The notes below the pieces were generated by a model, which was not told the origin of the DNA, made no database searches, and worked only from the letters and a program-made list of their open reading frames with translations. A stretch of 64,000 nt of DNA from an uncultured cyanobacterium (lineage in GTDB: Bacteria; Cyanobacteriota; Cyanobacteriia; Cyanobacteriales; CAWUOF01): positions 3,232,001 through 3,296,000 of the forward strand of contig CAVUSO010000001.1 in the NCBI GenBank assembly GCA_963744145.1, written 5' to 3'. The position numbers and the translations under genes were made by a program. Below are positions 10,793-62,601 of this stretch, one piece after another. Positions within the stretch are counted from its first letter, which is position 1, and the number at the start of each line of letters is the position of its first letter.

Positions 10793-11516
10793 ATGACGGT
10801 TGATGACGAATCAAATTCAGAAACTCTTCGCGACTTTTTTGCTCTGATTGAAAAGTCCCCATCATCGCGCTAGTAACTGTCCAAGAACCAGGCTTTTGTA
10901 CCCCCCGCATCACCATACACATATGGGTTGCTTCTAACACTACAGCTACACCTTGAGGCTCTAAAACAGTCTGAACTGCTTCAGCAATTTGACGTGTTAA
11001 TCGCTCTTGGACTTGCAAACGACGGGCATACATTTCCACAATGCGGGCTAATTTACTTAGTCCTACCACTTTTTGGTTAGGAATATAGGCAACATGAGCT
11101 TTACCCATAAACGGAAGCATATGGTGTTCACACAGACTAAAAAAGTGGATATCTCTGAGCAACACCATTTCATTATGACCTTCATCAAAAATTGCCCCGT
11201 TCACAATTTTTTCTAAGGATTGAGCATAGCCACTAGTCAGAAACCTCATTGCTTCTGCTACCCGTTTGGGTGTTTTTAGCAGTCCTTCACGCTCCGGATC
11301 TTCTCCTACTCCTAGTAAAAGCTGACGTACTGCCATCATCATCTCCTCGTTGCCGATTTCGGTCTTAGATGGCAACTTGGCTTCACGACCATTTAAAGTA
11401 TTGCGATCGGGTCGAGTTACTAATCTAGTTGGAGCTTCGGTAGGTTCAGCGGTAGCAACATCATCAGTTGCAGGTACTTTTGAACCATTGGAACCATTGA
11501 AAGGAGCAATAGTCAT
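10785..11516 (-). CDS. folE: GTP cyclohydrolase I
   Basis: [31 protein letters not shown] and [11 protein letters not shown]. Confidence 0.97.
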
Positions 11517-11725
11517 GATCGGTTTAGGTGAGAGTGTGGTGGATAGAGCGGAAATAAGATCAGCCTGAATACATTGGCATACACTCGTTAGATTTAGATA
11601 AATAATTTATTGCCAGTCGGCTAAGGTGTTTCTAGTAATTGCCTGATCAATTCCACTACTTGCACCTATAATTATCGAAATTTGTCGCTCCTGATCTTAA
11701 AAAATCTGAGGGATTTAACCAGATT

Positions 11726-22910: not shown

Positions 22911-25100
22911 CCCACATTCCGCACGTCAATTTGTAATATACTTTGTAACATATTTATCTGAGCATTTATACTCATGAATGACCGAAATTTTCCGCTCACC
23001 ACAGCACTAATTGGTCGGAAATCATCCTAGAAATAATAAGTACTTATGCTGATTAAAGTGACAGATATTGCCTTACCAAGTGTTGCTTTTGGCATTGCTA
23101 GCTGGTCAGATTGATCCTTCATTATGTAAAACACAAGAATACAAAGATAAAAAGAAGAATTATTAAAAAAATCTGAAAGAGCAAGTAAAAAAGTCAATCA
23201 AGGTATTTTTTTGATGAAAATTAGTGAATATAGCCATCAAAAAGTCAAGGAAGAAAATTTATTTCTCCCCATAATGAAGTGCTTCATTATCTCAGCGATT
23301 TTGCCCAGAAAACTAGGGAATTATTGATAATATCTTTGACAAGAAGTGGGTAAAAATTCTAACATAAAATTACGTTCTTCGGTCAAGTTAATAATTCTTT
23401 CAACTCCATTTAGAATCACAAAATGAATTCCTTGAAAACATTGAAATATCCATCTTAATGTCGGTCGGCTTGTTAATTTACCGACTTGATTTTTTACTCC
23501 AGTCTGAGTTCTAAGTAAATTCTTTCTTAGTTCTCTTTGACCAAGATTATAAACTAATAAACACATAGACATTAAAAATAAAATTGTCTCAACTCTTTGT
23601 GGTTTTTTGACAAAAAAACTATCGGCAAAAAATAAGGGGTCTTTGAGAAAACCAAATCCCCGCTCACATCCCTGTTGATTTTTATAACTTCTGAGAATTT
23701 CTGGAGATTTAATTTTTTCTGGTTCCAGAACATTTGTCGCTAAAATAAATCGACCTGCTTCTGATTTTTTCGGGTCTATTTCTGATAGTTTTGGCACGAC
23801 TTTTCCAGCTATCTGCCAGCTTTTTAATGATTTATATCCAGTTATAATCACATTGATTTCCTGGAGCTCAAAAAATTTTAGTGATTGATTTATTTCCGTT
23901 AGTTTAGTTCGAGCTTGAGCGATACTTTCAAATTTTTCATTTTGGAGTTTTTTGAGAATTTTTTCGGCTTTCTGTTGTGATTGCTGGAGTTGTTTCTCGA
24001 ACTTTTCTCGATCACTTTTTTTTCTTTTTTCACTTTCTACTATTAACCATCTTTGCTCTATATCTCCGTAATTTACTGTTTTTTCTTGCCACTTATATCC
24101 TTTGGCTTGTAAACCTTTAATCAAGTCTTTTTCGGGTTGAGGTAATTTTTCTAAATTCTCATATTTTTCCGGTTCTATCTCTTTAACTTGGATTAAATTT
24201 TTGGCTTGGGAAATAGTGCTTGGGACTCTAGTTATCCAGTTAAAATCCTTCATTATTTTTAGATTTTCCTCACTATATAAAGCACTATCAGCTACCAAAA
24301 TACTGTCTAAATTTAGTTGATTTTTAAATGAGCTAAAAACCTGGCCAAAGACAGCCTTATCTGCTTCATTGCCATCGGCGATTCGGATAAATAATGGGAT
24401 ATCCCCATCGCTACTTACCACCAAGTCTAATATACATTGCTTCAAGTCTGAACGATGATCACGAGAATATCCTTTAGTTATAAATATCGGTCTTTCTTTG
24501 ATGATATCTTCATTTTCTTGGTTGACTTTTTCATAATTATATTCCCCATGTAAATGAAATGATGTCGCATCTAAATGGGCATACTTTGATTCAATTTTAA
24601 ACTTGTTTATAGTTACTAATACGATTTCTACAAATAGCCTAGTTAATCCGTATTTATAGAGTTTATCCATCACTCTACCAAGTTTATCGTCGTTTAAATA
24701 TTCACTTTTAATATTTGGTCCTAGCAATTTTTCTATCGCTTTATCTGCAAAGAATTGACTAAATAAATATAAGGGTTTTGATACCATCCCTAGTCCATTC
24801 AAGAGCATCGCTTTTACTACTTGACCATTATCGATATTTGAGCGGCTATCCATTCCTAATTTATCATTGATTATTTCGACTATTCCTATTTCATCAATTA
24901 TCCCTGCCACTATTCCTAAGTGGTCTAGATTTTTGATTTGTATTTCTGATGAAGTAATCATTTTTTTGAAGTTTTTAGATTTTGGCTGACTTTCTGATCA
25001 TCTCATTTTTTTGCCCTGTGGTTATTTAAGTAATTATACTCATTAATGCTCTTGGCCTTTATGTAACTTTTATACTACATTTTGAAGTGCGGAATATGGG
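22911..25100 (-). mobile_element. IS1634-family insertion sequence
   Basis: TIRs CCCACATTCCGCAC / GTGCGGAATATGGG; 6-bp TSD TTGCAA at 22905-22910 and 25101-25106. Confidence 0.93.
23321..24961 (-). CDS. IS1634-family DDE transposase
   Basis: NLDHLGIVAGIIDEIG, HLDATSF, GYSRDHRSDLKQ, VADSALY and ERGFGFLKDP. Confidence 0.93.
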   Translation of the reverse strand: MITSSEIQIKNLDHLGIVAGIIDEIGIVEIINDKLGMDSRSNIDNGQVVKAMLLNGLGMVSKPLYLFSQFFADKAIEKLLGPNIKSEYLNDDKLGRVMDKLYKYGLTRLFVEIVLVTINKFKIESKYAHLDATSFHLHGEYNYEKVNQENEDIIKERPIFITKGYSRDHRSDLKQCILDLVVSSDGDIPLFIRIADGNEADKAVFGQVFSSFKNQLNLDSILVADSALYSEENLKIMKDFNWITRVPSTISQAKNLIQVKEIEPEKYENLEKLPQPEKDLIKGLQAKGYKWQEKTVNYGDIEQRWLIVESEKRKKSDREKFEKQLQQSQQKAEKILKKLQNEKFESIAQARTKLTEINQSLKFFELQEINVIITGYKSLKSWQIAGKVVPKLSEIDPKKSEAGRFILATNVLEPEKIKSPEILRSYKNQQGCERGFGFLKDPLFFADSFFVKKPQRVETILFLMSMCLLVYNLGQRELRKNLLRTQTGVKNQVGKLTSRPTLRWIFQCFQGIHFVILNGVERIINLTEERNFMLEFLPTSCQRYYQ

Positions 25101-28435: not shown

Positions 28436-29892
28436 CAGGGTTAGCGCATCTAATTTTGTCACCGAGGATACAGAATATTTTCATCAAATATGAAATATAG
28501 CCATCGAGATCAGAACATCACAAATCTGGTAGAGAAAATAGTTGACAAAAGAGCATAGAGAGTGGTAGGTGAAAAACTATACCGTCCAACTCATAATCTC
28601 CAGGAATATTCAAATGTCTCAAGGGTTCGATATCAATATAGCTAATGCTAAACAAAACTCCCATTCTGCTAGGAAAAACCAAGTAGTAGCTGACTTGATG
28701 GAAATACAACAGAGTTTAGTCAAGCATTTTGAAGATGTTGAAGACCCGAGAGTAAACCGAACAAAAAAACACTTATTGATAGACATTTTAGTGATGGCAA
28801 TTCTGGCCATAATAGCTGGAGCACAAGGCTGGGAAGACATTGAGAATTATGGGATTAGTAAACAAATTTGGCTAGAAGAGTTTTTAGAATTACCCAATGG
28901 TATTCCCTCAGATGATACCTTTCGTCGAGTATTTGAAAGTATTAACCCCAACCAATTGGAGCAATGTTTTCAAGCTTGGGTAAACACCTTAGTTACTCAA
29001 ATGGGAGGAGAAGTAATTGCCATAGATGGGAAGACTGTCAGAGGTTCCTATGACCGAAATCAAGGACAATCAGCATTACATTTGATTAGTGCGTGGGCTA
29101 GTGAACAACGATTAGTTTTAGCACAAATGAAAGTCCAAGATAAATCCAATGAAATTACAGCTATTCCAGCATTACTAGAGTTACTTGATATCGCTGGCTC
29201 AATTATTACTATTGATGCGATGGGGACCCAAACCGAAATTGCTCAAAAGATTATTGATAAAAAAGCTGATTATATTCTGACACTTAAAGCCAATCATCCA
29301 ACTTTACATAATCAGGTACAACAATTCTTCCAAACTGCACAGAAAAATAATTTTTCAGGAATTGATTTCACTCATGACAAACGGATTGAGAAAGGGCATC
29401 ATCGGGTGGAAATTCGTGAAGTTTGGGTGCTCCCTATTACGGCCATTCCTGACCTTTACCAACCCAAATTATGGGCAGGTTTAAAAAGTATTGTCATCAT
29501 TCATCGTATCCGTCATCTTTGGAACAAAACTACTTGCGAGACTCAATACTATCTTACTTCTTTAGACAACAATGCTGAATTCATAGGTCGAGCTATTCGT
29601 CAACATTGGGAAATCGAAAATTCTGCACACTGGACTTTAGATTGTACTTTTTTTGAAGATAGCTGTCGCATTCGTTCTTTTCACAGTCCTCGTAACTTTT
29701 CTCTGCTCAGACGATTAGCTCTCAACGCTCTTAATCGCGAGTCAACTTACAAACGCAGTTTACGCCAGAAAAGTAAACGCGCTGCTATGGATAATAATTA
29801 TATGCTCCAAATCCTCCTTTCTTGTTTCTCTGAGTCTACATTAGATCCTTCTTAATCCTTGTGTCAAGCCTAATTGAGATGCTCTTACCCTG
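28436..29892 (+). mobile_element. ISAs1-family IS, copy 1 (1457 bp)
   Basis: TIRs CAGGGTTAGCGCATCT / AGATGCTCTTACCCTG; TSD GGCATCTC at 28428-28435 and 29893-29900. Confidence 0.94.
28569..29855 (+). CDS. ISAs1-family transposase
   Basis: NGIPSDDTFRRV, IAIDGKTVRGS, KSNEITAIP, TIDAMGTQ and RQHWEIEN; true start probably downstream. Confidence 0.95.
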   Translation: MKNYTVQLIISRNIQMSQGFDINIANAKQNSHSARKNQVVADLMEIQQSLVKHFEDVEDPRVNRTKKHLLIDILVMAILAIIAGAQGWEDIENYGISKQIWLEEFLELPNGIPSDDTFRRVFESINPNQLEQCFQAWVNTLVTQMGGEVIAIDGKTVRGSYDRNQGQSALHLISAWASEQRLVLAQMKVQDKSNEITAIPALLELLDIAGSIITIDAMGTQTEIAQKIIDKKADYILTLKANHPTLHNQVQQFFQTAQKNNFSGIDFTHDKRIEKGHHRVEIREVWVLPITAIPDLYQPKLWAGLKSIVIIHRIRHLWNKTTCETQYYLTSLDNNAEFIGRAIRQHWEIENSAHWTLDCTFFEDSCRIRSFHSPRNFSLLRRLALNALNRESTYKRSLRQKSKRAAMDNNYMLQILLSCFSESTLDPS

Positions 29893-31237: not shown

Positions 31238-32542
31238 CTAAAGACACTGAGATTCTTGAAGAGTCCAGATCCTGAACTTCAAAGGCGCGTACAAGACACC
31301 TCTACTGATTTCACTTAGGACTAGCCCAAGCTCCACCGCTACTTTTCTTAAAATGTTGGCTGCACCATTGCAATCGGCATTTATCTTAGTGCCTTTGGAA
31401 CTGAGATAGGAACCACGGCTAACTCTTTTTCCTGATGCTGTCCATCCTGCGGGTTTTTCACCGTAAGTTGGGATGGGATCAGCATCTAAAAAACTAGCCT
31501 TGCTGGTATAACTTTCTTCAGTTTCGGCAAACTTAATGCCAAACAACTCACAAAGTTCTTGAATTCTTGCTTTAAGCCTAGCCGTAGGGATTTGGACAAA
31601 GTTTTGATTGTTCTTTTTGCCTAACTCTATCCCATCTTTTTGACTTTTATTCCAACCAAAAACTAAAGTTCCTATCCCATTATTTAAACAATGGTTTATC
31701 ACTATCCGAGCCGCTTTGTTGATAGCGTCCCTCATTTGTCTATTACGTTTCTCCGTCATTGCAGCTAAACGATTAGACCAAAAACCTTCGGGTTTATTAG
31801 CTTTAAGTTTGGCGACCTGTTTGTTGTACCATTGATTGACTGACTTTAGGTGTTTGCCATCAATAATAAAACTTGTCCCTACATTACTAACGGCTGTCAA
31901 CCAGTTATTCAAACCGTGGTCTATCCCCAAACATTTAGCTGGGTCTAGGACAGGTTTTTCGACTAGAACTGGGTAGATAAACTCAGCATAAAAGCAACCG
32001 TTTCTAGGGAGTATCCTGACCTCTCTAAGAGACTCAAAATCTAGGTTAGTTGGCATTGGTAGGAAAAATTCTTTGATGCCAAACCAAGCATTGACCTGTA
32101 ATCCTAAAGGGAATCTAATCTTTCCATCAATTAACCTTAGTGACCGTTTAGGATAGGCAACTAATTGATACCCCGGTTTTCGATAATTGGGTAGTTTGGG
32201 TCTAGTTTCAAGTTGACCACTTAGCCACAACCCCCGTAACTTGGCAAAAGAGCTAATTGACTCTCCCACTGAGATACAAGTTTGCACTGCTGCATCTGAG
32301 GGTAGTGCAGAGAAATGCACATTTTCCGTAAGATTCCTTACTATGTCAAACTTGGTGACGTATTGGTGAGCTTTAAACCACATTTGACGCGCATAGTAGG
32401 TAGCACAATTGTGGAGTTTGTTCGACTCCGAGCAAATAAATTCAAGAATTGCTTTTAACTCTGGTTCAGCATTGATCAAATTTTGCTGAACACCTAACGG
32501 TACTTTGGTTTTTTTTGGCGTCTTACTTCTAGCTTTAGCCAC
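31238..32542 (-). CDS. tnpB: RNA-guided endonuclease TnpB
   Basis: GIDHGLNN (RuvC-I), TEESYTSKAS and INADCNGAANI (RuvC-III). Confidence 0.93.
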   Translation of the reverse strand: MAKARSKTPKKTKVPLGVQQNLINAEPELKAILEFICSESNKLHNCATYYARQMWFKAHQYVTKFDIVRNLTENVHFSALPSDAAVQTCISVGESISSFAKLRGLWLSGQLETRPKLPNYRKPGYQLVAYPKRSLRLIDGKIRFPLGLQVNAWFGIKEFFLPMPTNLDFESLREVRILPRNGCFYAEFIYPVLVEKPVLDPAKCLGIDHGLNNWLTAVSNVGTSFIIDGKHLKSVNQWYNKQVAKLKANKPEGFWSNRLAAMTEKRNRQMRDAINKAARIVINHCLNNGIGTLVFGWNKSQKDGIELGKKNNQNFVQIPTARLKARIQELCELFGIKFAETEESYTSKASFLDADPIPTYGEKPAGWTASGKRVSRGSYLSSKGTKINADCNGAANILRKVAVELGLVLSEISRGVLYAPLKFRIWTLQESQCL

Positions 32543-33697: not shown

Positions 33698-36600
33698 TTA
33701 AAGTGCCTCACCCATTAAAGTAAATCCCGCCCAATATTTAGGTTGAGGATATTTTTTCATAGTGTTTAACATCGCTTGTCTTAACGCTTGGGCTTGATCG
33801 GGGTTTTGTTTAAGTTGGTTGTAAAAGTCTGACATTAAATAACTGGTGGATTCATCACTCACAGACCATAGAGAAACAATTATGCTAGCAGCTCCCGCAC
33901 TGATGAGCGATCGCGATAATCCAATCACTCCGTCACTAGTTAATTTACCCCGTCCCGTGTTGCAGGCACTTAATACTACTAATTGCGCTTTGAGTTTTAG
34001 GTCTAAGATTTCGCTAGAGCTGAGTAGACCATCATCCTTGTCGGTTGGAGTTAGGGCGATCGCGCCTGGCAAACCTTGTTTTTGGATTTCATAAAGTAAT
34101 CCATGTGTTGCGAGATGAATAATATTTGATTTTTGCATCTGTTGAGTAATAAATGCTTTAGTTGCTTGAGCGCCAATGATGGGTTTAGTATTGAGTATTT
34201 GAGATACAGTTTTGGCTTCTGCTTCTGAATGGGGAAGCGGCTCTAATTGTCGGATATCACCCGAAATATTAACTTTAGGCATAATGGGATTTCCCATTAC
34301 GGTTATGTTCGATAAGGGTGATTGCTTGATGTTTTGGTGTTGTGTATGCGTGAGTTGTAAAATCTGAATAGATGGAGCAGTTAAAATGGTATGTTTTTCA
34401 ATCAGATATTTACCTTCTTCGTCTTGCAATGCTGCAAAAGGAACTAGGAATAAAGACTGATGAGGAATAAAGATAACTTTATCATTAGGATTTGTGGGTA
34501 ATAAATCAACGATTGGTTTTATTAGTATTTTATACATTTTCTGGTTACATAGACGTGGTAAAACGCAGAGTTGAGGTTTAGTAGTAATTATTTGTTGATT
34601 AGTCGAATTATTATCTGTTATCCCAACTACTGAACGAGTATTATTTACAAAGTTTGCTAATCCAGAATCAGATGATGGTAATCCTCTAGTAGCAGTTATA
34701 TCTATATGATTTTCAGTAAATTTTGTGAGATTGGTATTAAGAGGTTTTAAGTCAACAGATCGAAAAATAATTTCACCATTAGGCTTAATTACCCAAATAT
34801 ATAAAAATTCACCATCAATAACTGAATATTCAACAAGTGTTGAGTTTTGTTCAGATGCAATTCGTTGAATTTCCTGAATATTAGGGGAATTTATAGTACG
34901 CTCAACTGATGAAGATAAATGAGATGCTAATAATTCAACAAATGCTCTTGCTCTACCACGTTCGGATATTTCTAAGGCTTCTTTAGTTTTACTCTCAGCA
35001 ACTAATGCTCTTTGTAAATTGATATATGGATTTGTTTGGGTTTCAAATATTGATATTTTGTTAGGATCATTTAATCCATTTCGTAGCGATTCTGAAACAT
35101 TGATACTATCCAATAGTGGCTTTTCAGCATCATTGAAATTGCCTTGTTTGTACAAAGATAATCCCAAATGGTTTAGAACATTACCCTCATTATAACGGTC
35201 TTTAATTTTCTGTGTGATTGCCAATGACTGCTGAAAGTAATCAATAGCTTTGGTATATTGACCGAGAAAACGGTAAGCAATTCCTAGATTGCCCAGAGCA
35301 GCTCCCTCATCATGACGGCTTTTTATTTCTCGTACAATCACCAAATCCTGTTTAAGGTAATCAATAGCTGTGGTGGATTGGCCAAGATAATTGTAAGCAA
35401 TTCCCAGACCGCCGAGAGCATAACCCTCGGTTTGACGGTCTTTAATTTCCCTGGCGATCGCTAATTGCTGTTTAAGGTAATCAATGGCTGTAGTGAATTG
35501 GCCAAGATCATTGTAAGCAATTCCCAGATTGCCCAAAGCAAGACCCTCAGTTCGACGATCTTTGATTTCGCGTGCGATCGCTAATGCCTGTTGATAGTAA
35601 TCAATGGCTGTAGTGAATTGGCCAAGATCATCGTAAGCAATTCCCAGATTGCCCAGAGCAAGACCCTCAGTTTGACGGTCTTTTATTTCCCTGGCGATCG
35701 CTAATGCCTGTTGATAGTAATCAATGGCTGTGGTAAATTGGCCAAGATGATCGTAATTAGCTCCCAGATTGTTCAGAGTAAGACCCTCAGTTTGACGGTC
35801 TTTTATTTCCCTAGCGATCGCTAAGGTCTGTTTATCATAATCAATTGCTGTAGTGTATTGGCCAAGTGCATCGTAAGCATTTCTCAGATTGACTAGAACT
35901 TTAAACTCAATTTGACGATTTTTAATTTCTTGTGCGATCGCCAAACTTTGTTGATAGTAATTAATTGCTTTAGTATAGTCACCGAGAGACTGGTAAGCCC
36001 ATCCGAGATTGTTCAGATCCCAACCCTCAGTTTGACAGTCTTTAATTTCCCTAGCGATTGTCAAGCTTTGCTGTGTATAATTAATTGCTTTGGGATAGTC
36101 ACTCAGATCAAGGTAAGCAAGTCCCAGATTCAACAAAGCGTTACCCTCACCTTGACGGTCTTTAATTTCGCGGGCGATCGCCAAATATTGCTGATAGTAA
36201 TCGATCACTTTCGTATATTGACCGAGAGCATTGTAAGAATTTCCAAGATTGGTGAGAACTTTAAACTCAATTTGATCGTCTTTAATTTCCTGTGCGATCG
36301 CCAAACTTTGTTGATAGTAATTAATTGCTTTAGCATAGTCACCGAGAGACTGGTAAGCCCATCCGAGATTGTTAAGATCCCAACCCTCAGTTTGACGGTC
36401 TTTAATTTCCCTAGCGATTGTCAAGCTTTGCTGTGTATAATTAATTGCTTTGGGATAGTCACTCAGATCAAGGTAAGCAAGTCCCAGATTCAACAAAGCG
36501 TTACCCTCACCTTGACGGTCTTTAATTTCGCGGGTGATCGCCAAATATTGCTGATAGTAATCAATTGCTTTGGCATATTGACCGAGATCATAGTAAGCAT

Positions 36601-36892
36601 TACCTAAATTGCGTATAGTTACTCCCTCATATTTGCGGTCTTTAATTTCCTGATAAATAATTAGCGATTGTTGACATGATTGTAATGCTGCTTGAAATTG
36701 GCTGGTATCATCTTGCTTTTTACATTGCTCTAGTAATCCATCAGCCTCTTCTTTCCGATCCGCAGTTGTCTGAGCTACTGCGGATAAAGAATATATCTTT
36801 AATTTGGTATTAAAGCTAATTGAAAAAGCACTTAGATTTAACCCTACTAATAATGCCGAAATTACAGTCAATCTAATATTTTGCATTTTCAT
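33698..36892 (-). CDS. TPR-repeat CHAT-domain protein
   Basis: Signal peptide, 40-aa TPR units, CHAT motifs IHLATHG and VVLSACNTG, YWAGFTLMG. Confidence 0.93.
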   Translation of the reverse strand: MKMQNIRLTVISALLVGLNLSAFSISFNTKLKIYSLSAVAQTTADRKEEADGLLEQCKKQDDTSQFQAALQSCQQSLIIYQEIKDRKYEGVTIRNLGNAYYDLGQYAKAIDYYQQYLAITREIKDRQGEGNALLNLGLAYLDLSDYPKAINYTQQSLTIAREIKDRQTEGWDLNNLGWAYQSLGDYAKAINYYQQSLAIAQEIKDDQIEFKVLTNLGNSYNALGQYTKVIDYYQQYLAIAREIKDRQGEGNALLNLGLAYLDLSDYPKAINYTQQSLTIAREIKDCQTEGWDLNNLGWAYQSLGDYTKAINYYQQSLAIAQEIKNRQIEFKVLVNLRNAYDALGQYTTAIDYDKQTLAIAREIKDRQTEGLTLNNLGANYDHLGQFTTAIDYYQQALAIAREIKDRQTEGLALGNLGIAYDDLGQFTTAIDYYQQALAIAREIKDRRTEGLALGNLGIAYNDLGQFTTAIDYLKQQLAIAREIKDRQTEGYALGGLGIAYNYLGQSTTAIDYLKQDLVIVREIKSRHDEGAALGNLGIAYRFLGQYTKAIDYFQQSLAITQKIKDRYNEGNVLNHLGLSLYKQGNFNDAEKPLLDSINVSESLRNGLNDPNKISIFETQTNPYINLQRALVAESKTKEALEISERGRARAFVELLASHLSSSVERTINSPNIQEIQRIASEQNSTLVEYSVIDGEFLYIWVIKPNGEIIFRSVDLKPLNTNLTKFTENHIDITATRGLPSSDSGLANFVNNTRSVVGITDNNSTNQQIITTKPQLCVLPRLCNQKMYKILIKPIVDLLPTNPNDKVIFIPHQSLFLVPFAALQDEEGKYLIEKHTILTAPSIQILQLTHTQHQNIKQSPLSNITVMGNPIMPKVNISGDIRQLEPLPHSEAEAKTVSQILNTKPIIGAQATKAFITQQMQKSNIIHLATHGLLYEIQKQGLPGAIALTPTDKDDGLLSSSEILDLKLKAQLVVLSACNTGRGKLTSDGVIGLSRSLISAGAASIIVSLWSVSDESTSYLMSDFYNQLKQNPDQAQALRQAMLNTMKKYPQPKYWAGFTLMGEAL

Positions 36893-42842: not shown

Positions 42843-43478
42843 TCATGCCTCATTCGTTTGGGGCAAACCGGCTTGAAAAATCTGTTCTGCTGTTAGTTGC
42901 AATTCTGGAAATGCAGGCGATTCAATGCGATCACTTCCCCGAAACTGTTTGACCTGATACTCCCCATCTATCAGTTGGCAAACTGAGATGGTGGGTTGTT
43001 TGGGATTGCCAATAAACCGTCTACCACCCAAACCCCGATAGTCAACGATCCAATATTCGGGTATGCCAAAAAGTTCATATTCCCCCATTTTCATCAGATA
43101 ATCATCTTGCCAGTTGGTACTGACTACCTCTACAGCCAGTCGTATCGAAGCGCCCATCGTGATGACAGATTCTTTCTGCCAACGTGGTTCGTTTAAGAGC
43201 GCAGTTCGGTCTAGAACAATTATATCGGGCTGATAACCTGATTCGTTACGGGCGGGTTTAAGTAGACAATCACCGGGAATAGAGTAAGGCAATTCGCGAC
43301 GGTCAATTTCAACTGCTAGTTTTAAGCTGATCAAACCTGTAACATCGGAATGATCGCCAGTTCCTAAAGGCATTTCAATAATTATTCCGTTGTGTAGTTC
43401 GTAGTAGTACGGCGAATTTTCTGGATACCATGCAACGAACTCATCAAAAGTGACTGTTTTAGCTATGGTTTGAATCAT
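42843..43478 (-). CDS. Uma2-family endonuclease
   Basis: YELHNG, YQPDIIVL, AVEVVS and GIPEYWIVD. Confidence 0.9.
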   Translation of the reverse strand: MIQTIAKTVTFDEFVAWYPENSPYYYELHNGIIIEMPLGTGDHSDVTGLISLKLAVEIDRRELPYSIPGDCLLKPARNESGYQPDIIVLDRTALLNEPRWQKESVITMGASIRLAVEVVSTNWQDDYLMKMGEYELFGIPEYWIVDYRGLGGRRFIGNPKQPTISVCQLIDGEYQVKQFRGSDRIESPAFPELQLTAEQIFQAGLPQTNEA

Positions 43479-43749: not shown

Positions 43750-46700
43750 ATGAACCGGAGAGCTTTAGTAGTCGGGATTAACCGATACCCTTTTATCAAA
43801 AATTTGGAAAGACCAGCTTCTGATGCAGAGGCGATCGCTCATCTCCTAGAAAATCATGGTGGCTTTCAAGTGCGTCGGTTGCCTGCTGGGATAGGAGATG
43901 ATAGATTTAACGTCAATCCTAAACCTGGTAATGGAGAAGAAAATGTTAACATCACGATATTAGAAGAAGAAATTATCAAATTGTTCGCGATCGGAGAAAC
44001 AGATTGCCCTGATCTAGCCTTGCTGTTTTTTGCTGGACACGGTTTGCGAAAACCACGAGGATTAAAAGAAGGATTTTTAGCTACTAGCGAGGCTTGTCCT
44101 AGAAAAGAAGTATATGGTTTTGCTTTAAATTCCTTACGAGATATTTTAGAAGCAAGTGAAGTTAAACAGCAAGTAATTTGGTTAGATTGTTGTCATAGTG
44201 GTAAATTTATTGATGTATTAGATAAAGCTGATCCAAGAAATGCAGGTAAAGTACGCGATCGCTGTTTTATTGCTGCTTGTAGTGCTTCAGAAACTGCTTA
44301 TGGAACTGGCGAACATGGGTTACTAACTAGCATTCTTTTACAAGGACTCGATCCGCAGGGGTGTGAAGTTAATGAGTGGATAAATAACCTTTCTTTAGCA
44401 GCGTTTGTTAACGATAATGAAGACTGGCGAAACTTTGATCAGCGTCCAGTCTTTAACAATTCGGGCGGGGAAATTCAACTCATTAAAGGAGGAAAAAGTC
44501 AGCAAAATCTAGTTGAAAATTCTTTGGTAAATCAACCCGGATGCTCGAATATTAATATAGGAACAAGGAAAATCCTTCACGTCAGTTTAAGTGAACAGGA
44601 CGAAGATTATGCTTCTGTGCGCTACTTTTGGGAGAATTCGGCTGATGGCAAAGAACATAAATTGTCTCTGGCTGAAATTAAAGATTTAGGTAATCAAGCA
44701 GAAGCTGATTTAACTCGTAGCCCTGTGGATTATGCTACTACTGGACAATTACTCTACAATTGGTTAGATCAGAGCGATCGCTTCCTAACTAATGCCTTAA
44801 ATCAGTCCGATCGGAAAGAGTTAATCATTGCGATCGCGACTGATCAAAAACTAGCAAAATTGCCTTGGGAATTGTTGCATGATGGGAATTGTTTCTTAGT
44901 AGAGAAAAGACCTGCTATTATTCCGGTGCGGTGGGTGTCTAATGGTCAACCGATCGCGATCGCTAATTCTCCGCAAAATCGACCTCTTAATTTATTATTT
45001 ATGGCGACTTCTCCTTTGGGAGTTGAACCCGAATTAGATTATGAAGCAGAAGAAGGGCAAATTTTAGAGGCAACCCAGCGTGCTTCAGTGGACTTAATAG
45101 TAGAAGAAAGTGGCTGTTTAGATGAATTGAGTTATGTGGTTCGGGAATATGAAAAAGGCTATTTTGATATTTTTCATTTAACAGGTCATACGACTACTGA
45201 GGAGAAAAAACCTTGCTTTTTGACTGAAGATGAATACGGCAACCGAGTTAATAGTAGTACCGCTGACATTTATGATGCACTGACATCCTCATTACCGCCT
45301 TTAATTTTCCTATCTGGTTGTCGAACTGGTTATTCTTCTAAAGACACAGTTCCCTCAATGGCAGAAGAATTATTAAGGATAGGAGGAACAGCAGTTTTAG
45401 GATGGGGAGAAAGAGTCCGGGATACCGATGCAACAGCGGCTGCTAGTATATTTTATCGTCTTTTGTCTCAGGGAGAAGCGATTACAGATGCACTATCTTC
45501 TACCTATCAAACACTGATTAAACAACAGTCACGCGATTGGCATCAATTACGGTTATATGTGTCAAATATCATCCCCCAGGCGTTAGTAACTCCTTTAAGA
45601 ACAAAGGGACGAAAACAATTGCCCAAACCGACGACAACAAGCCAATTTAGGGATGATGAGCAGAAGTTAAGAGTAGCGAGTAGAAAAGATTTTGTTGGTC
45701 GTCGTCGTCAGTTACAAAACTGTTTGCGAACTCTGAAGGGAGATCAGGAAAAAGTAGGTGTATTAATTCACGGGATGGGGGGATTAGGAAAAAGTAGCAT
45801 TGCCTCTCGATTGTGGGATAGACTATCTGAACATGAAAAAGTTCTATGGTGGCGACAAATTGATAACTCAAACTTAATCAAAAAGCTATCGTCTAAATTA
45901 ATTAAACCAGAGTTACGGGATATTCGTAATGATTTAAACGCTAGCGATGACAGTTTAGACATTAAACTCGCTAATTTGTTCAATCAATTAGTAGGACAGA
46001 GAGAAAAACCATTTCTCCTGATTCTTGATGATTTTGAATGGAATCTCGAAGACAATCAAGGTCGATTCATTCTCAATCCTGAAGTGAAAACAGTTTTGTC
46101 AGCCTTAGTCTGGGCTATCCAAGAAACGGGAACTAAACATCGGATTTTAATTACCTGTCGCTATGAGTTTGATTCTGAGTTATTGGAGTTTTTCTTCTCA
46201 CAAGGTCTAGAATCTTTTAGAAAATCTGAATTAACTAAAAAGCTTACCCGCTTAGAACATTTTAGTTCGGAGCGGCTCTCTGAAGATATACGCGATCGGG
46301 CGCTAAGTTTAGCCGATGGCAATCCTCGTTTACTGGAATATCTCAATGATGAAGTTTTAGGTGAACCAGATGCAGCAGCTAAATTAACAGAACTAGAACA
46401 AAGTCCCGAACTGTGGAAAAACAAAATTATTTGGTCAGACCTGTATAAGCTTATTGATGAGCCATTACAACGGGTTCTTAGCCATTGCTTAATTTATGAA
46501 ATTCCTGTACCAATGGGAGCTTTAGAAGTAGTTTGTGCTGCTCTTCCTAATTACCAACAGCAATTACATCGAGGGCAAGAGCTGGGACTCATTGAAATCA
46601 GTCCTGACGTTCAAGCAGAAAATCAAGTCTTTCGTGTCTCTCGAATTTTACCTCATATCATTCCTAATATCCGACTTCCTGAAGCACCTGAAGTTTATTC

Positions 46701-47397
46701 TTTATACAAGAAAGCTTATGAAATATTACATCAGTTATGGGGAAATCAACAAAATAGAAGTCAGGAAAAGTGGCAGGAGATTTTTCGGTTATTGTTTGCC
46801 GATCGAGAAAATCCAGAACGATTCAGACAGGGATTCTATGAGATGTTGGCAGTTCAAGGTAATTATCAAGCAGATGAAAACGCAAATATTGCCTTAGAGT
46901 CAGAACTGATACAACGGAAAGATGAATTATCAACAGAGAATCTTTGCAGTCAATTAGAGAATTATTTAAGTCAACAAGAATGGAGAAAAGCTGACGAGGA
47001 AACTGCCTGGATTTTTTATCAAATGATGGTGCAGCATGACGATGAAGGTAGGATGGTGGTATGCAAGAACATTCCCAGCGAAACCCTCAACCAGATCGAT
47101 CAGCTTTGGGTTAATAACAGTCAAGGACGTTTTGGATTCAGCATTCAAAAGCGAATCTGGGAAAGTGTGGGCGGACATCCACATGCAGATTTTGAAAAAA
47201 TATTTGAAAAATTTGGTGATAAAGTAGGATGGAGAAAAGATGGCTTCTGGTTGTCAGAGCTTACTTTTAATAATAACACCACTACTCCTTTTAGCCACCT
47301 CCCGGCCACCTCCCTTTTCCTGGTGTATGCGTGGGATGGGGTATTACTAGGAATGTGGTGGTTTTTGAGTTATCTTTTCTCGCGCAAAGACTTGTAA
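43750..47397 (+). CDS. Multidomain protein: caspase-like protease + CHAT + P-loop NTPase + C-terminal GUN4 domain
   Basis: ALVVGINRY, FFAGHG and LDCCHSG (caspase); FHLTGH and LSGCRTG (CHAT); HGMGGLGKS and LILDDFE (NTPase); WRKADEET, GRFGFSIQKRIW, FGDKVGWR and HLP (GUN4). Confidence 0.9.
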   Translation: MNRRALVVGINRYPFIKNLERPASDAEAIAHLLENHGGFQVRRLPAGIGDDRFNVNPKPGNGEENVNITILEEEIIKLFAIGETDCPDLALLFFAGHGLRKPRGLKEGFLATSEACPRKEVYGFALNSLRDILEASEVKQQVIWLDCCHSGKFIDVLDKADPRNAGKVRDRCFIAACSASETAYGTGEHGLLTSILLQGLDPQGCEVNEWINNLSLAAFVNDNEDWRNFDQRPVFNNSGGEIQLIKGGKSQQNLVENSLVNQPGCSNINIGTRKILHVSLSEQDEDYASVRYFWENSADGKEHKLSLAEIKDLGNQAEADLTRSPVDYATTGQLLYNWLDQSDRFLTNALNQSDRKELIIAIATDQKLAKLPWELLHDGNCFLVEKRPAIIPVRWVSNGQPIAIANSPQNRPLNLLFMATSPLGVEPELDYEAEEGQILEATQRASVDLIVEESGCLDELSYVVREYEKGYFDIFHLTGHTTTEEKKPCFLTEDEYGNRVNSSTADIYDALTSSLPPLIFLSGCRTGYSSKDTVPSMAEELLRIGGTAVLGWGERVRDTDATAAASIFYRLLSQGEAITDALSSTYQTLIKQQSRDWHQLRLYVSNIIPQALVTPLRTKGRKQLPKPTTTSQFRDDEQKLRVASRKDFVGRRRQLQNCLRTLKGDQEKVGVLIHGMGGLGKSSIASRLWDRLSEHEKVLWWRQIDNSNLIKKLSSKLIKPELRDIRNDLNASDDSLDIKLANLFNQLVGQREKPFLLILDDFEWNLEDNQGRFILNPEVKTVLSALVWAIQETGTKHRILITCRYEFDSELLEFFFSQGLESFRKSELTKKLTRLEHFSSERLSEDIRDRALSLADGNPRLLEYLNDEVLGEPDAAAKLTELEQSPELWKNKIIWSDLYKLIDEPLQRVLSHCLIYEIPVPMGALEVVCAALPNYQQQLHRGQELGLIEISPDVQAENQVFRVSRILPHIIPNIRLPEAPEVYSLYKKAYEILHQLWGNQQNRSQEKWQEIFRLLFADRENPERFRQGFYEMLAVQGNYQADENANIALESELIQRKDELSTENLCSQLENYLSQQEWRKADEETAWIFYQMMVQHDDEGRMVVCKNIPSETLNQIDQLWVNNSQGRFGFSIQKRIWESVGGHPHADFEKIFEKFGDKVGWRKDGFWLSELTFNNNTTTPFSHLPATSLFLVYAWDGVLLGMWWFLSYLFSRKDL

Positions 47398-47687
47398 ACT
47401 TTAAGAGATAACAATTTCAGGCCATTTGTCAAGCTTATTTTTGCTACTAATTTTTACGAAAACATCGGCTTTTTCCTAACTCAATACCTGGCACTGTTCC
47501 GTCCGTCCGTCGTTTGTCTGTTTTTGGAATATGGACAGAAGAAAGACAGAATGGCCAGGTGACCAGAACAACACAAACTAAGAATCATTAAAAAACTGTG
47601 CAGCGACCTTGGGGTCATAGCAATTAGCCATCACAAACTTTTCAGCCAGATGATGTAGTCGATCGCATTTGGTGGGATAGCTGAGGT

Positions 47688-47756
47688 GCGATCGCGTAAG
47701 TCAACATTCACTGACTGAAAATTGCGCCAATTTTTCAGAGCTATATGGGAGATCAT
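47688..47756 (-). pseudogene. 5' stub of an AAA/RecF-SMC-type ATPase gene
   Basis: MISHIALKNWRNFQSVNVDLRDR; similarity stops at a HIP1 site. Confidence 0.5.
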
Positions 47757-47852
47757 CCTGGTGTTAACCGAATAATTTTTTAAAGATTCAAACCCGCGAT
47801 CGCCCACAAGTGTCAGTCAAGAAAAAATTGACAAAAAGAACGAAGTATCTCA

Positions 47853-48190
47853 GTAGGGGCTTTCGCATTCGGGCGACAATTGAACAATCAAACTGTACCC
47901 TGAGTTTACCCTGAGCGTAGCCGAAGGGCGTAGTCGAAGGGCAGTAATATTATACCCGAATGCTTCGCCCAGTCTGCGCCGATATCTCCCAAAAAATTCT
48001 GAACTGAATGTATTTTAATATATATTTGATCTGTTGGCTGCATAGATGGTAAGGGCAAAGCATTTCGGTAATATTATACTTCCCTTCGACTACGCCCTTC
48101 GACTCCGCTCAGGGTAAACTCAGGGTAAACGTTTAAGCAATCATTTATTCGCCGAAATGCTTTGCCCCTACAATTAACTGAACCGGATTG
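47853..48190. repeat. Pair of GTAG REP-like palindromic units, each with nested CCCTGAGCGnAGnCGAAGGG inserts
   Basis: GTAGGGGCTTTCGCATTCGGG...CCCGAATGCTTCGCCC and GTAAGGGCAAAGCATTTCGG...CCGAAATGCTTTGCCCCTAC. Confidence 0.8.
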
Positions 48191-48296
48191 AATTATAGTT
48201 ACCATCGAATCATATTCAAACTCTCAATCCCGCGATCGCCTGTACTTTAAACATCAGCTCATCAACTTGCTACTGGACGCTTCCCCGCTCATACAG

Positions 48297-49753
48297 CAGG
48301 GTAAGAGCATCTCAATTAGGCTTGACACAAGGATTAAGAAGGATCTAATGTAGACTCAGAGAAACAAGAAAGGAGGATTTGGAGCATATAATTATTATCC
48401 ATAGCAGCGCGTTTACTTTTCTGGCGTAAACTGCGTTTGTAAGTTGACTCGCGATTAAGAGCGTTGAGAGCTAATCGTCTGAGCAGAGAAAAGTTACGAG
48501 GACTGTGAAAAGAACGAATGCGACAGCTATCTTCAAAAAAAGTACAATCTAAAGTCCAGTGTGCAGAATTTTCGATTTCCCAATGTTGACGAATAGCTCG
48601 ACCTATGAATTCAGCATTGTTGTCTAAAGAAGTAAGATAGTATTGAGTCTCGCAAGTAGTTTTGTTCCAAAGATGACGGATACGATGAATGATGACAATA
48701 CTTTTTAAACCTGCCCATAATTTGGGTTGGTAAAGGTCAGGAATGGCCGTAATAGGGAGCACCCAAACTTCACGAATTTCCACCCGATGATGCCCTTTCT
48801 CAATCCGTTTGTCATGAGTGAAATCAATTCCTGAAAAATTATTTTTCTGTGCAGTTTGGAAGAATTGTTGTACCTGATTATGTAAAGTTGGATGATTGGC
48901 TTTAAGTGTCAGAATATAATCAGCTTTTTTATCAATAATCTTTTGAGCAATTTCGGTTTGGGTCCCCATCGCATCAATAGTAATAATTGAGCCAGCGATA
49001 TCAAGTAACTCTAGTAATGCTGGAATAGCTGTAATTTCATTGGATTTATCTTGGACTTTCATTTGTGCTAAAACTAATCGTTGTTCACTAGCCCACGCAC
49101 TAATCAAATGTAATGCTGATTGTCCTTGATTTCGGTCATAGGAACCTCTGACAGTCTTCCCATCTATGGCAATTACTTCTCCTCCCATTTGAGTAACTAA
49201 GGTGTTTACCCAAGCTTGAAAACATTGCTCCAATTGGTTGGGGTTAATACTTTCAAATACTCGACGAAAGGTATCATCTGAGGGAATACCATTGGGTAAT
49301 TCTAAAAACTCTTCTAGCCAAATTTGTTTACTAATCCCATAATTCTCAATGTCTTCCCAGCCTTGTGCTCCAGCTATTATGACCAGAATTGCCATCACTA
49401 AAATGTCTATCAATAAGTGTTTTTTTGTTCGGTTTACTCTCGGGTCTTCAACATCTTCAAAATGCTTGACTAAACTCTGTTGTATTTCCATCAAGTCAGC
49501 TACTACTTGGTTTTTCCTAGCAGAATGGGAGTTTTGTTTAGCATTAGCTATATTGATATCGAACCCTTGAGACATTTGAATATTCCTGGAGATTATGAGT
49601 TGGACGGTATAGTTTTTCACCTACCACTCTCTATGCTCTTTTGTCAACTATTTTCTCTACCAGATTTGTGATGTTCTGATCTCGATGGCTATATTTCATA
49701 TTTGATGAAAATATTCTGTATCCTCGGTGACAAAATTAGATGCGCTAACCCTG
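48297..49753 (-). mobile_element. ISAs1-family IS, copy 2 (1457 bp), inverted relative to copy 1
   Basis: Same TIRs as copy 1; 10-bp TSD GCTCATACAG at 48287-48296 and 49754-49763. Confidence 0.94.
48334..49620 (-). CDS. ISAs1-family transposase
   Basis: Matches the copy 1 protein except for one visible A/V substitution. Confidence 0.95.
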   Translation of the reverse strand: MKNYTVQLIISRNIQMSQGFDINIANAKQNSHSARKNQVVADLMEIQQSLVKHFEDVEDPRVNRTKKHLLIDILVMAILVIIAGAQGWEDIENYGISKQIWLEEFLELPNGIPSDDTFRRVFESINPNQLEQCFQAWVNTLVTQMGGEVIAIDGKTVRGSYDRNQGQSALHLISAWASEQRLVLAQMKVQDKSNEITAIPALLELLDIAGSIITIDAMGTQTEIAQKIIDKKADYILTLKANHPTLHNQVQQFFQTAQKNNFSGIDFTHDKRIEKGHHRVEIREVWVLPITAIPDLYQPKLWAGLKSIVIIHRIRHLWNKTTCETQYYLTSLDNNAEFIGRAIRQHWEIENSAHWTLDCTFFEDSCRIRSFHSPRNFSLLRRLALNALNRESTYKRSLRQKSKRAAMDNNYMLQILLSCFSESTLDPS

Positions 49754-52928: not shown

Positions 52929-53924
52929 ATGACCAAACCCAATACTGATGATTGGAAAACACCTCTAGGGGTATATGAAAAAGCGATCGCTGAATTACGG
53001 AGAACTCGGGAACAAATTCAGACAGAAATCCAAACTTTCAGACAGATGCCAATTCCTATAAATGAATTTTCAGAATTGAAAGCAGAACTAAAAAAATCTC
53101 ACCTAAAAATCGAAGCTCTTACCGCAGATTTGGAACAAACTAAAACCGAACTTGTCAATACTCAAAAAATCGCCAGTGCTGCTCAAGAGCAAGTTGCTAA
53201 TGCGGAAAAACAAGCTGATTATGCTCAGAAAGAATTAGAAAAATTAACTAAAGTTATGAATAATAATCAAAGCAGTAATACTGAGCTTATTGAAATGGTT
53301 AAAAAACTACAAGAGCAATTAGAACAACTGTCATCTATACCGAAAACAGAGAATTTGCCAGATCGGATTATGGTAGATATTTCAGACTTGCGATCGCAAG
53401 TATCGAAATTATCAGATGAACTAATGCTTGTTTCTCCTGTAACCGGAACAGACTACTCTAGTTTGCGAGATTTATTAGCAAACAAAGAATGGAAAAAAGC
53501 TGATGAAGAAACTAGAGAAATAATGCTGAAAATTTCTAAGAGAGACGAGAATGGATGGTTAGATCGAGGGAACATCGAACAATTTCCCTGGCAAGATTTT
53601 CGGATAATTAATAGACTTTGGTTAGAATACAGCAATAGCAAATTTGGGTTTAGTGTTCAAAAGCAAATATGGGAAAACATAGAGGTAGCTAGCAACAATG
53701 ATTTTGAAGTAGAGAAGACTTTAGGCGATCGGGTTGGGTGGCGTAATAATAATGTATGGCTTAAGTATGAAGAACTTACTTTTGATCTTAGTGCATTTGA
53801 GGGACATCTACCATCAACCCTTCATCTTCTTGGTATAGAACACGGAAAAGTAGAAGGTAGAATAAGATTGCTTTTCTCAACTGATAAATCGGGAGCAGTT
53901 CGGCGTCGAAAAAAGAAGCAATAA
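52929..53924 (+). CDS. Coiled-coil + GUN4-domain protein
   Basis: DYSSLRDLLANKEWKKADEET, KFGFSVQKQIW, GDRVGWR and GHLP. Confidence 0.88.
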   Translation: MTKPNTDDWKTPLGVYEKAIAELRRTREQIQTEIQTFRQMPIPINEFSELKAELKKSHLKIEALTADLEQTKTELVNTQKIASAAQEQVANAEKQADYAQKELEKLTKVMNNNQSSNTELIEMVKKLQEQLEQLSSIPKTENLPDRIMVDISDLRSQVSKLSDELMLVSPVTGTDYSSLRDLLANKEWKKADEETREIMLKISKRDENGWLDRGNIEQFPWQDFRIINRLWLEYSNSKFGFSVQKQIWENIEVASNNDFEVEKTLGDRVGWRNNNVWLKYEELTFDLSAFEGHLPSTLHLLGIEHGKVEGRIRLLFSTDKSGAVRRRKKKQ

Positions 53925-61133: not shown

Positions 61134-61712
61134 TTAGTCCTCAAAAATCGCATCAACACTAATCACTATGTCCGGAAATGAAAGAGGTGAGATACTTTCA
61201 CCGGATCTAAATTGTTGGATACTTTCATAGCCATTAGTGTTAGGATTGCGATAAACTTCAACTAATTGTGCTTCTATGTCTATGATCCAAAGTTCAATAA
61301 TTCCTGCTCTAGCATAGACAACTGACTTGACATTACGGTCATTGTCAATAGTGGTATCTGATACTTCAATCAATAAATATATGTCTTGGGTTTGGGGTGG
61401 TGATTTTATGTAATCATCCCTACGAGGTTTCAAAATTGATAGATCGGGTTCCGGTTGTAATCTTCCGTTTAATCTGACTGGAGTTTGTGCTGTGATCAAA
61501 ACACGATCGCCTAAAGCCTTAAAGAAAATTTTCAGCAAACGACCAATATACCCTGCATGACGAGTCCCCATTGGTGCCATATAAATAATATCCCCATCAA
61601 TTAGTTCTGTCTTACCATCCCCAAGCATCCCCAACTCACTCAGTTGGTAATATTCCTCTACCGTGAATTGCTTTCTTGTTGGTTTTATTGCTACTGCGAT
61701 CATCATTCTCAC
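61134..61712 (-). CDS. Uma2-family endonuclease
   Basis: FTVEEYYQL, QPEPDL, LLIEVSDTT and YARAGIIELWIID. Confidence 0.9.
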   Translation of the reverse strand: MRMMIAVAIKPTRKQFTVEEYYQLSELGMLGDGKTELIDGDIIYMAPMGTRHAGYIGRLLKIFFKALGDRVLITAQTPVRLNGRLQPEPDLSILKPRRDDYIKSPPQTQDIYLLIEVSDTTIDNDRNVKSVVYARAGIIELWIIDIEAQLVEVYRNPNTNGYESIQQFRSGESISPLSFPDIVISVDAIFED

Positions 61713-61917: not shown

Positions 61918-62601
61918 TCAAGCCAAAATCAAAAGCCCATCATCATCCAACAAATTCGGCACAGCCTCCATATCAATCAAATAATCGCCGAAACGCTTAA
62001 TATGACTCGTCATATAAGGACTTAATGCTGCCATATCTTCACGATTGATCAAACGACCAGCCTTCAGTAAATCCCGCAAAACATCAGTTAAATCCACAAC
62101 ATTTTGGAAAATAACAGCATTATCCACCAAATCATTATATTTAATAATCTTCTCCTGCTCAACCGGATCATTATTAGCAATAATCCCAAAACCACCAAAG
62201 AAAAACCACTTATAAAAATCGTTATAAGCCTCAACAATATTCGTAGCTGTAGTAATCTGTTGTCGCAACTTCAGATCCGAAACAGATTGCAACAAAAATA
62301 CCGTCCTAATCACCCGTCCCAACTCCTGAAAAGCTTGATATAAGCTATTTTTGTGACTATAATTTTCCAGCTTTCGTAACAACACCGCACTGGAAACCTT
62401 ACCAGTTTGAATCGACAAGACAACCTGCAAAATATCTTGCCAATGGTTTTCTATTTTGACCCAATCAATCGCATCCTTAAACAAAGAATCAATATGCTTG
62501 TAAACCCTATCATTACTTGGACGAAAGAAATTTAAATCCTTCCAATTCTGAATCCGGGGCATTAACTTAATCCCCAACATACGTGACCAAGCAAACACAG
62601 G
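61918..62601 (-). pseudogene. Tn3-family transposase, C-terminal fragment
   Basis: PRIQNWKDL, ELGRVIRTVFLL, LSPYMTSHIKRFGDY. Confidence 0.87.

Follow-up and report, generated by a model that had tools for sequence, protein, structure and literature searches.

A variable G/T-rich tail, a three-frame stop element and a facing Y1 nuclease gene at GUN4-domain genes of cyanobacteria

Related systems and the GUN4 tail module

Only a small number of mechanisms are known by which variation is directed to a single part of a bacterial gene. [quoted passage not shown] We have analysed a stretch of 64,000 nucleotides (nt) from an uncultured cyanobacterium (assembly GCA_963744145.1, contig CAVUSO010000001.1, positions 3,232,001 to 3,296,000 of the forward strand), hereafter called the window, in which a gene for a caspase-type protein with a C-terminal GUN4-like domain ends in a G/T-rich segment and a conserved DNA element with stops in all three frames, followed by the remnant of a facing gene for a Y1 (HUH) nuclease. 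Comparison with related loci securely establishes a widespread cyanobacterial module consisting of two boundaries at the DNA level, a replaceable G/T-rich filler, a three-frame stop element and a Y1 gene in cis.

As at procA, the target gene faces a class-2 TnpA_REP-like Y1 gene with conserved spacing and intergenic DNA, many truncated Y1 fragments retain the C-terminal end, and a conserved 5' coding part closes with a fixed motif rich in G/C, after which the 3' coding part is hypervariable and rich in indels. The two cases differ in that the target here is not a peptide precursor but the GUN4-like sensor domain of caspase, STAND, kinase and protease proteins, in that the taxa are filamentous and other non-marine cyanobacteria, in that the segment is G/T-rich at every codon position, and in that the conserved element downstream extends into the coding end, where any of three frames may be read, each with its own stop.

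In V(D)J junctional diversity, fixed boundaries are joined through a biased filler of random length, and the frame is left to chance and later selection. As an analogy only, the GUN4 module likewise has two fixed boundaries and a biased filler of random length; unlike V(D)J joining, no RAG-like or terminal-transferase gene was identified in the module, the enzyme belongs to another class, and the change is seen between copies and strains. At slipped-strand contingency loci, frame changes at the 3' end of a gene switch its C-terminal peptide, whereas the GUN4 segments are replaced whole rather than lengthened by a repeat unit, and the window shows no simple repeat. Diversity-generating retroelements (DGRs) share with the module the focus on the C-terminus of a sensor-type protein, the conserved flank 3' of the variable region and the adjoining enzyme gene; unlike a DGR, the module has yielded no reverse transcriptase among the window ORFs scanned and no template repeat in the window or the related loci, and what varies is length and whole content, not adenines.

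Judging from the sections on these elements in the papers cited (PMC6006769; PMC3733652), the Y1 protein resembles the systems of repetitive extragenic palindromes (REP) with REP-associated tyrosine transposases (RAYT, or TnpA_REP), as well as the TIR-associated TIRYT systems, in carrying HUH and class-2 Y..NP motifs; it resembles RAYT subclass 2.1 in having about 250 amino acids (aa) with a C-terminal extension, and REP/RAYT systems in being strongly conserved across the phylum, in the manner of a domesticated gene. Unlike the REP/RAYT systems as those sections describe them, the Y1 gene here is without flanking REP hairpins or inverted repeats, its cognate conserved DNA is one-sided and lies inside the end of a protein-coding gene, and several intact copies can occur on one plasmid. 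The GUN4 domain itself has been described as a sensor- or effector-associated domain of cyanobacterial conflict systems, in papers whose passages on GUN4 make no mention of the tail (PMC7159879; PMC7517822; 10.1101/2022.07.19.500537). We found no description of the combination of GUN4 tail, segment, element and Y1 gene in the full-text literature searched, which did not cover subscription-only papers.

The variable segment and its two boundaries

The host gene of the window (43750..47397, plus strand, 1215 aa), as delimited by the list of open reading frames (ORFs) and Pfam, encodes Peptidase_C14 (caspase), CHAT, STAND NTPase (AAA_16/NB-ARC) and C-terminal GUN4-like domains. The GUN4-like domain (46948..47304, plus strand; Pfam GUN4, E=2.6e-26, residues 1067-1189, profile positions 9-127 of 141) passes the gathering score of PF05419, with 92.9 bits against a cut-off of 29.2, and ends at a His-Leu-Pro motif; in 13 of 13 scanned homologues the Pfam match ends at profile position 125-133. 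Searching Pfam with the tail peptides alone matched no family. In a fold model of the window domain with its tail, the pLDDT is 83-93 in the domain, 51-64 in the segment and 73-74 in the last 14 residues, which are modelled as a helix; confidence in the modelled tail is thus low to middling.

The conserved DNA element (47367..47440, plus strand; nhmmer match 47369-47438, E=3e-11) overlaps the final codons with their stop as well as the beginning of the spacer, and contains three tandem heptamers (47393..47413, plus strand) with a TAA in each, at 47395, 47402 and 47409, one per frame (frames 0, 1 and 2). An earlier sequence-only reading of this DNA had given these positions exactly, and its frame-dependent readings of the tail as LFSRKDL, ..SRAKTCKL or SFLAQRLVNFKR, each closed by a stop, are borne out. 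That reading had also ascribed three such kinds of tail to cyanobacterial GUN4-domain proteins, and they are real: the endings ..SSLASRLVNCNI, ..LFSRVETCKL or ..SLLSRRDL are found in 28 homologous proteins and in 78 related loci, a sample biased towards the query because only the best 80 of 588 relatives confirmed in a GUN4-domain alignment search were kept. All three endings are the three frames of a single nucleotide sequence built around GACTTGTAAA.

With a nucleotide profile, 59 of 79 sequences (the 78 loci plus the window) show the element directly after the GUN4 domain, without exception on the coding strand; the profile gives seven extra matches on the same strand, three of which are internal tails, the others being two in L027 and one each in L043 and L052. 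The 39-nt core of the element surpasses the GUN4 coding DNA in pairwise identity (mean 0.844 vs 0.699), being the more identical of the two in 855 of 903 pairs from 43 loci. The T-A-A columns of the heptamers are near-invariant or swap among stop codons only, and the columns between them vary. In 54 of 58 loci each of the three frames meets a stop no more than 60 nt from where the element starts; these 58 loci, the set that remains after removal of one duplicate locus, are also the basis of the segment statistics below. By these alignments the element is conserved as primary sequence. Short hairpins can be drawn in it without covariation, and single-strand DNA folds of both strands are no better than shuffles (z -1.6 to +1.1, six folds). 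Rfam gives no family for positions 47000-48400 of the window (three chance-level rows, E>2.7) or for 10200-11400 of L016.

Proteins with tandem GUN4 domains carry internal tails (L012 9892-9925; L019 712-736; L044 9858-9895; L047 after 10327), which consist of a segment and the opening 30-40 nt of the element, the stops having been lost, and among which every one of the three frames is represented; their structure suggests that new GUN4 units have been joined within the heptamer region of an existing element. In two further loci (L020, about 10400-10450; L049, about 10430-10480), the element stops short after the second heptamer and is followed by tandem repeats of AGTCAAA-type heptamers.

Between domain and element lies the variable segment, which in the window has 62 nt (47305..47366, plus strand) with 69% G+T. 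The sequence-only reading had counted 21 G, 19 T, 8 A and 2 C at positions 47321-47370, again exactly; these 40 G+T in 50 nt stand 3.5 standard deviations (sd) over the window mean (25.1, sd 4.3). The composition of this single copy is only suggestive, because at least 40 G+T per 50 nt is reached by 32 overlapping starts at six places in the 64 kb. The skew is nevertheless general: across the 58 loci the segments contain G.40, T.32, A.17 and C.11, as compared with A.32, T.24, G.28 and C.17 in the GUN4 domains of the same loci, and their G+T content at codon positions 1, 2 and 3 is.70,.70 and.74. Some segments are nearly pure G/T (L004.94, L046.97, L068 1.0, L071.98), and G+T in the first 45 nt is.735 in loci with the element (n=58) vs.606 in loci without it (n=18; p=3e-4). 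The L004 segment sits behind a stop at its third codon and is hence untranslated, so that translation does not account for its bias. The skew towards G and T is a property of the DNA.

Segment length ranges from 24 to 142 nt, with a median of 52.5, and its remainder modulo 3 is distributed 20/20/18, which supports the earlier proposal that the frame in which a single constant element is read is set by an upstream segment of variable length. The used frame is stop-free in 56 of the 58 segments (shuffle expectation 25.9, sd 3.2), and the other two frames in 26 and 27, as shuffling predicts. It follows that the segment is translated and that its frame is held open; of the frame-tolerant cassette proposed before, the tolerance holds for the terminal element and not for the G/T segment. 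The run lengths of G and T equal those of shuffles, with long G runs in some loci (e.g., 12 G in L068); G-quadruplex potential is not enriched (four G3 runs in 6 of 58 segments vs 4.2 in shuffles), and no short motif recurs within the segments beyond composition, so that the segment looks like random G/T-rich sequence. By a strict test, copies of the element start occur inside none of 59 segments; looser partial copies are present in L012 and P0003. Donor cassettes were found neither in the window nor in the 78 loci, the only second copies being those of orthologues and a within-locus repeat of 24 nt in L003.

The left boundary is formed by the His-Leu-Pro codons, beginning CACCTCCC (47296..47304, plus strand), and is recognized by a synonymous codon bias: the His codon is CAC in 47 of 65 loci against a background of 35% (binomial p=1e-9), and the Leu codon is CTC in 46 of 65 against 10% (binomial p=6e-31). 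On this codon evidence the CACCTCCC boundary is fixed at the DNA level and conserved beyond the need of the protein. In the window the flank of His-Leu-Pro is doubled by a perfect 11-nt tandem duplication (47294..47314, plus strand; Tandem Repeats Finder (TRF), period 11, 1.9 copies, 100% match), which moves the reading frame by +2; in its absence ..LAQRLV.. would be the frame used for the tail. Such a flank copy is present in no other tail among the 59 tested (shuffle mean 0.015), and an internal GUN4 domain of L019 has a similar doubled flank, AHLPGEAHLP.

A GUN4 subfamily (L040, L053, L066, L067) has another tail after His-Leu-Pro, with conservation at the protein level and a G+T content of.51-.53; this may be the ancestral C-terminal segment that was replaced elsewhere by the variable module. 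The window also contains a second GUN4-domain gene (52929-53924, plus strand, 331 aa) with a coiled-coil-like N-terminal part, in which His-Leu-Pro is encoded by CAT CTA CCA and the tail is not G/T-rich, gives no match to the element profile and retains no more than a faint likeness, ..RLLFS... Two paralogues, P0002 and P0009, lie elsewhere on the same contig of 7.63 Mb. In many loci the start of the GUN4 match is preceded, by about 40-260 nt, by C/A-rich stretches (maximum in a 45-nt window.70 vs.64 in controls; p~1e-5), which in four Cylindrospermopsis plasmid units vary in length and sequence. We have not counted these stretches as evidence, because their codon pattern, with C at positions 1-2 and A at position 3, fits a Pro/Thr/Gln linker.

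The facing Y1 gene and segment turnover

Downstream of the element in the window, 29 codons remain from the end of a gene, in convergent orientation, for a TnpA_REP-like Y1 (HUH) nuclease (47584..47670, minus strand; family profile hidden Markov model 226-254 of 256, i-Evalue 3.3e-6). The sequence-only reading, which had raised the question of a co-occurring enzyme, had missed this gene. In several loci the convergent ORF directly 3' of the element matches Pfam Y1_Tnp (E=3.7e-17), and a profile of 120 family members detects Y1 traces downstream in 18 of 59 loci, every one of them convergent. Five of these traces are near full length, 12, including that of the window, are C-terminal fragments, which end at profile positions 246-254 of 256, and L001 retains the N-terminal half only. 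In four intact loci the stop of Y1 follows the GACTTGTAAA anchor at a distance of 76-114 nt, and in the two annotated GUN4/Y1 pairs on plasmids the gap is 90 nt, with element and spacer conserved. A reverse search of plasmid records with the Y1 protein gave nine cyanobacterial places, eight of which adjoin a GUN4 tail element (four in NZ_CP060823.1, plus H4, H5, H6 and H14); the ninth (H7), an N-terminal fragment, stands by itself. The linkage between GUN4 tail and Y1 gene is thus shown to be specific and two-way.

The His-x-His and RYIHANP motifs are invariant or nearly so in 24 family members. A model of the Y1 protein (mean pLDDT 67, higher in the core) has as its best Foldseek match the REP-associated tyrosine transposase of E. 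coli, 4ER8 (E=2.6e-6), ahead of the IS200 and IS608 transposases, and the protein scores 66.8 bits with the NCBIfam family REP-associated tyrosine transposase (REP_Tyr_transpos), under the cut-off of 80; sequence searches of the PDB with the Y1 protein and its profile gave no matching chain. The family comprises at least 819 clusters at 90% identity in cyanobacteria (E<=1e-20, among 1000 candidates); identity among 120 listed members is 66-82%, and they are annotated only as 'transposase'.

Beyond the Y1 start, no conserved sequence was found in eight loci, with the exception of L014, where an array of 21-nt tandem units (about 11320-11600) begins right past the Y1 start codon and by eye resembles the heptamer part reversed; it is the only such case among loci with an intact Y1 gene. 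In L082 (NC_010632.1 23218-33971; plasmid pNPUN02 of Nostoc punctiforme), an ISL3 transposase gene splits the GUN4 domain and leaves the tail element and a Y1 pseudogene stranded on the far side of the insertion.

How the segment changes can be seen where the surrounding DNA is nearly identical. In L021, L034 and L068, for example, the GUN4-domain DNA is about 90% identical, yet the segments (54, 60 and 26 nt) are unalignable, and the element and the non-coding DNA past it can still be aligned. A plasmid of Cylindrospermopsis curvispora (NZ_CP060823.1) has six GUN4 genes, four of them with the element and a facing Y1 gene (three intact, one remnant), in a repeat unit that opens with the GUN4 domain and closes about 15 nt past the Y1 start, the N-terminal parts of the host proteins being unrelated. 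The four units are 85-98% identical over the 300 nt before the boundary, 91-99% over element and spacer and 95-98% over Y1; their segments, of 36, 42, 68 and 85 nt, are 17-36% identical and use all three frames. In Cylindrospermopsis protein clusters at >=90% identity, two Y1-linked genes of this plasmid show two segments in two members and three segments in three members; between P0181 and P0183 the identity is about 99% as far as the boundary, GUN4 domain included, and the sequences are wholly different after QLPLLR. Complete replacement of the segment between near-identical copies is thus shown. For the two GUN4 genes on that plasmid that lack Y1, a single segment is present throughout, in 4 of 4 and 12 of 12 of the members extending to the C-terminus. 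An action in trans, as proposed beforehand, is not favoured, since the candidate Y1 gene is convergent and in cis and turnover between strains is seen only at Y1-linked genes. The G+T content of the segment follows the state of the Y1 gene, with.85 where it is intact (n=5),.76 where it is a remnant (n=7) and.72 where it is absent (n=46; p=.034).

Possible origins of the variable segments

We consider it roughly 45% probable that the Y1 enzyme causes the replacement of segments by cutting and resealing DNA at the boundaries, in cis, a reading that relies on comparisons of sequences. The module, of which the 3' end of the window gene is taken to be a decayed copy, is composed, in this order, of a GUN4-like sensor domain closing in the DNA-conserved CACCTCCC (His-Leu-Pro); a sharply bounded, random-looking G/T-rich segment of arbitrary length; a conserved element of about 45-80 nt, whose TAA heptamers end any frame within about 12 codons; and the convergent gene for a TnpA_REP-like Y1 (HUH) enzyme, presumably a nuclease/ligase of single-strand DNA. 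This enzyme would recognize the element, and perhaps also the CACCTCCC boundary, in cis, and would cut and reseal the DNA there repeatedly; the intervening stretch would be lost and then refilled with G/T-biased filler by some polymerase or repair step; and selection would retain the variants that are open through to one of the three stops. The outcome would be C-terminal tips of varied length and sequence on NLR-like and caspase-type conflict proteins. The tail of the window is probably a frozen relic of the process, later moved to the ..SRKDL frame by the 11-nt duplication; we take it as frozen because its Y1 gene is reduced to the remnant of 29 codons.

A wider reading is more doubtful. It holds that the tips of immune-type sensors are diversified in a nuclease-driven and template-free manner, a domesticated HUH (Y1) enzyme cutting at two fixed DNA boundaries where GUN4-like sensor domains end, random G/T-rich filler of any length closing the gap, and the three-frame stops allowing every outcome to be translated. 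By analogy, and with the same reserve, such a process might be regarded as a bacterial counterpart of antigen-receptor junctional diversity, distinct from DGRs, shufflons and cassette conversion, and its mechanism could tentatively be thought akin to that of the unexplained prochlorosin radiation.

Several observations weigh against a causal role of Y1. The element is without a conserved hairpin like those bound by known Y1 enzymes (RNAalifold, 0 pairs in 31 sequences), no inverted second copy of the element lies beyond the Y1 gene in 10 loci, and no polymerase or transferase gene was found travelling with the module. The G/T content shows no polarity along the segment from either boundary, and there is therefore no sign of stepwise addition at one of them. 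The contrast between strains is one of two genes against two in a single genus, with Y1 adjacency assessed in the plasmid record only. Six Microcystis sequences share their tail save for one substitution and one deletion of one residue, and several other clusters are invariant, although in one cluster P0014 and P0045 do differ past the boundary; any activity must therefore be episodic, unlike that of a DGR. In P0173 and P0178 the GUN4 domain has diverged more than the N-terminal part, which fits a swapping of whole modules rather than change in place.

Such swapping might by itself account for the data, a rather unlikely explanation in our estimate: the cassette of GUN4 domain, segment, element and Y1 gene would be moved and exchanged as a whole, and the differences among segments would be old, with no dedicated making of new ones. 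The extent of the plasmid repeat unit, joined as it is to unrelated N-terminal parts, the mosaic similarity among the four units, the near-identity of P0173 and P0178 over their N-terminal 230 residues, and the internal tails of the tandem GUN4 proteins all speak for mobility of this sort. It is difficult to reconcile with P0181 and P0183, where the change begins at the boundary behind an almost identical domain, and with the plasmid flanks, which are up to 98-99% identical, so that separate conversion tracts would need to stop exactly at both boundaries; it also leaves the G/T bias at all codon positions unexplained, and no donor copies were found in the window or the 78 loci. We give even less weight to an ordinary fast-evolving linker, in which a slippage-prone segment would be selected for a stop-free hydrophobic tail, the element would be a terminator or regulatory site, and Y1 would be a bystander insertion sequence that targets the element. 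Codons of G and T only encode Phe, Leu, Val, Trp, Cys and Gly, the used frame is held open, the modelled C-terminal helix has a pLDDT of about 74, small tandem duplications are seen (11 nt in the window, the 24-nt repeat in L003), and tails without Y1 are stable between strains, as a linker would have it. Against it stand a third codon position that equals the first two in G/T richness, the untranslated L004 segment, His-Leu-Pro codons fixed at synonymous sites, and run lengths like those of shuffles, by which the segment is no simple repeat. Two further points count against it: all eight of the cyanobacterial Y1 places examined that keep the 3' half lie at a GUN4 tail, and non-coding DNA past the element aligns well in pairs whose segments are unalignable.

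A DGR target with its template repeat elsewhere is exceedingly improbable, as the sequence-only reading had already argued for the classical type. The variable region does lie at the 3' end of the gene with a conserved flank after it, and cyanobacterial caspase and STAND proteins are described as DGR targets in the parts of the literature cited here (PMC7517822; PMC7159879). Segment lengths, however, differ by tens of bases, also between near-identical copies, and the differences are not at adenines; this candidate was rejected, as no reverse transcriptase family was found among the 41 window ORFs scanned (E<=1e-5) and no template in the form of a second copy of any of the 59 segments in the window or the 78 loci, orthologues and the repeat within L003 apart. 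Chance or an assembly artefact is just as improbable: five other places in the window reach at least 40 G+T in 50 nt, and the same architecture recurs in 59 independent loci of many genera and in finished plasmid records, so that the cross-genome data already refute it. A slipped-strand contingency locus was likewise rejected, since TRF finds only the 11-nt duplication in 47000-47600 and run lengths are like those of shuffles, and so was an IS200/IS605 insertion sequence, since the conserved DNA is found only 3' of Y1 and the plasmid repeat unit includes the GUN4 domain.

The host genes encode proteins of NLR-like, caspase, kinase and protease type, for which a part in the conflict and cell-death systems of multicellular cyanobacteria is assumed. 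If the Y1 enzyme does cause the variation, this would explain how the sensor ends of these proteins diversify, would give a role to a large cyanobacterial 'transposase' family that is so far without function, and would back the unproven proposal on prochlorosin diversification. With short and defined sites, the question lends itself to a direct test. Whatever its answer, the last 8-12 residues of many annotated GUN4 proteins are the DNA element read in an arbitrary frame and are therefore not to be treated as a protein motif.

Several other genes were noticed in the window. A TPR-CHAT protein of 1064 aa (33698-36892, minus strand) is encoded 7 kb upstream of the caspase-CHAT-STAND-GUN4 gene, and two genes encode endonucleases of the Uma2 family (42843-43478 and 61134-61712). 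Two ORFs of 428 aa (28569-29855, plus strand; 48334-49620, minus strand), both with DDE_Tnp_1_assoc and DDE_Tnp_1, are likely to be two copies of one insertion sequence, one of them lying about 660 nt past the Y1 remnant. Further mobile-element genes are a TnpB-like OrfB_IS605 gene (31238-32542, minus strand), a DUF4277/DDE transposase gene (23321-24961, minus strand) and a Tn3 transposase fragment (61918-62598, minus strand). One chance-level Rfam row (E=2.7) at 47929-48094 on the minus strand corresponds to a long inverted repeat with imperfect arms, which may be a small repeat element able to form a hairpin.

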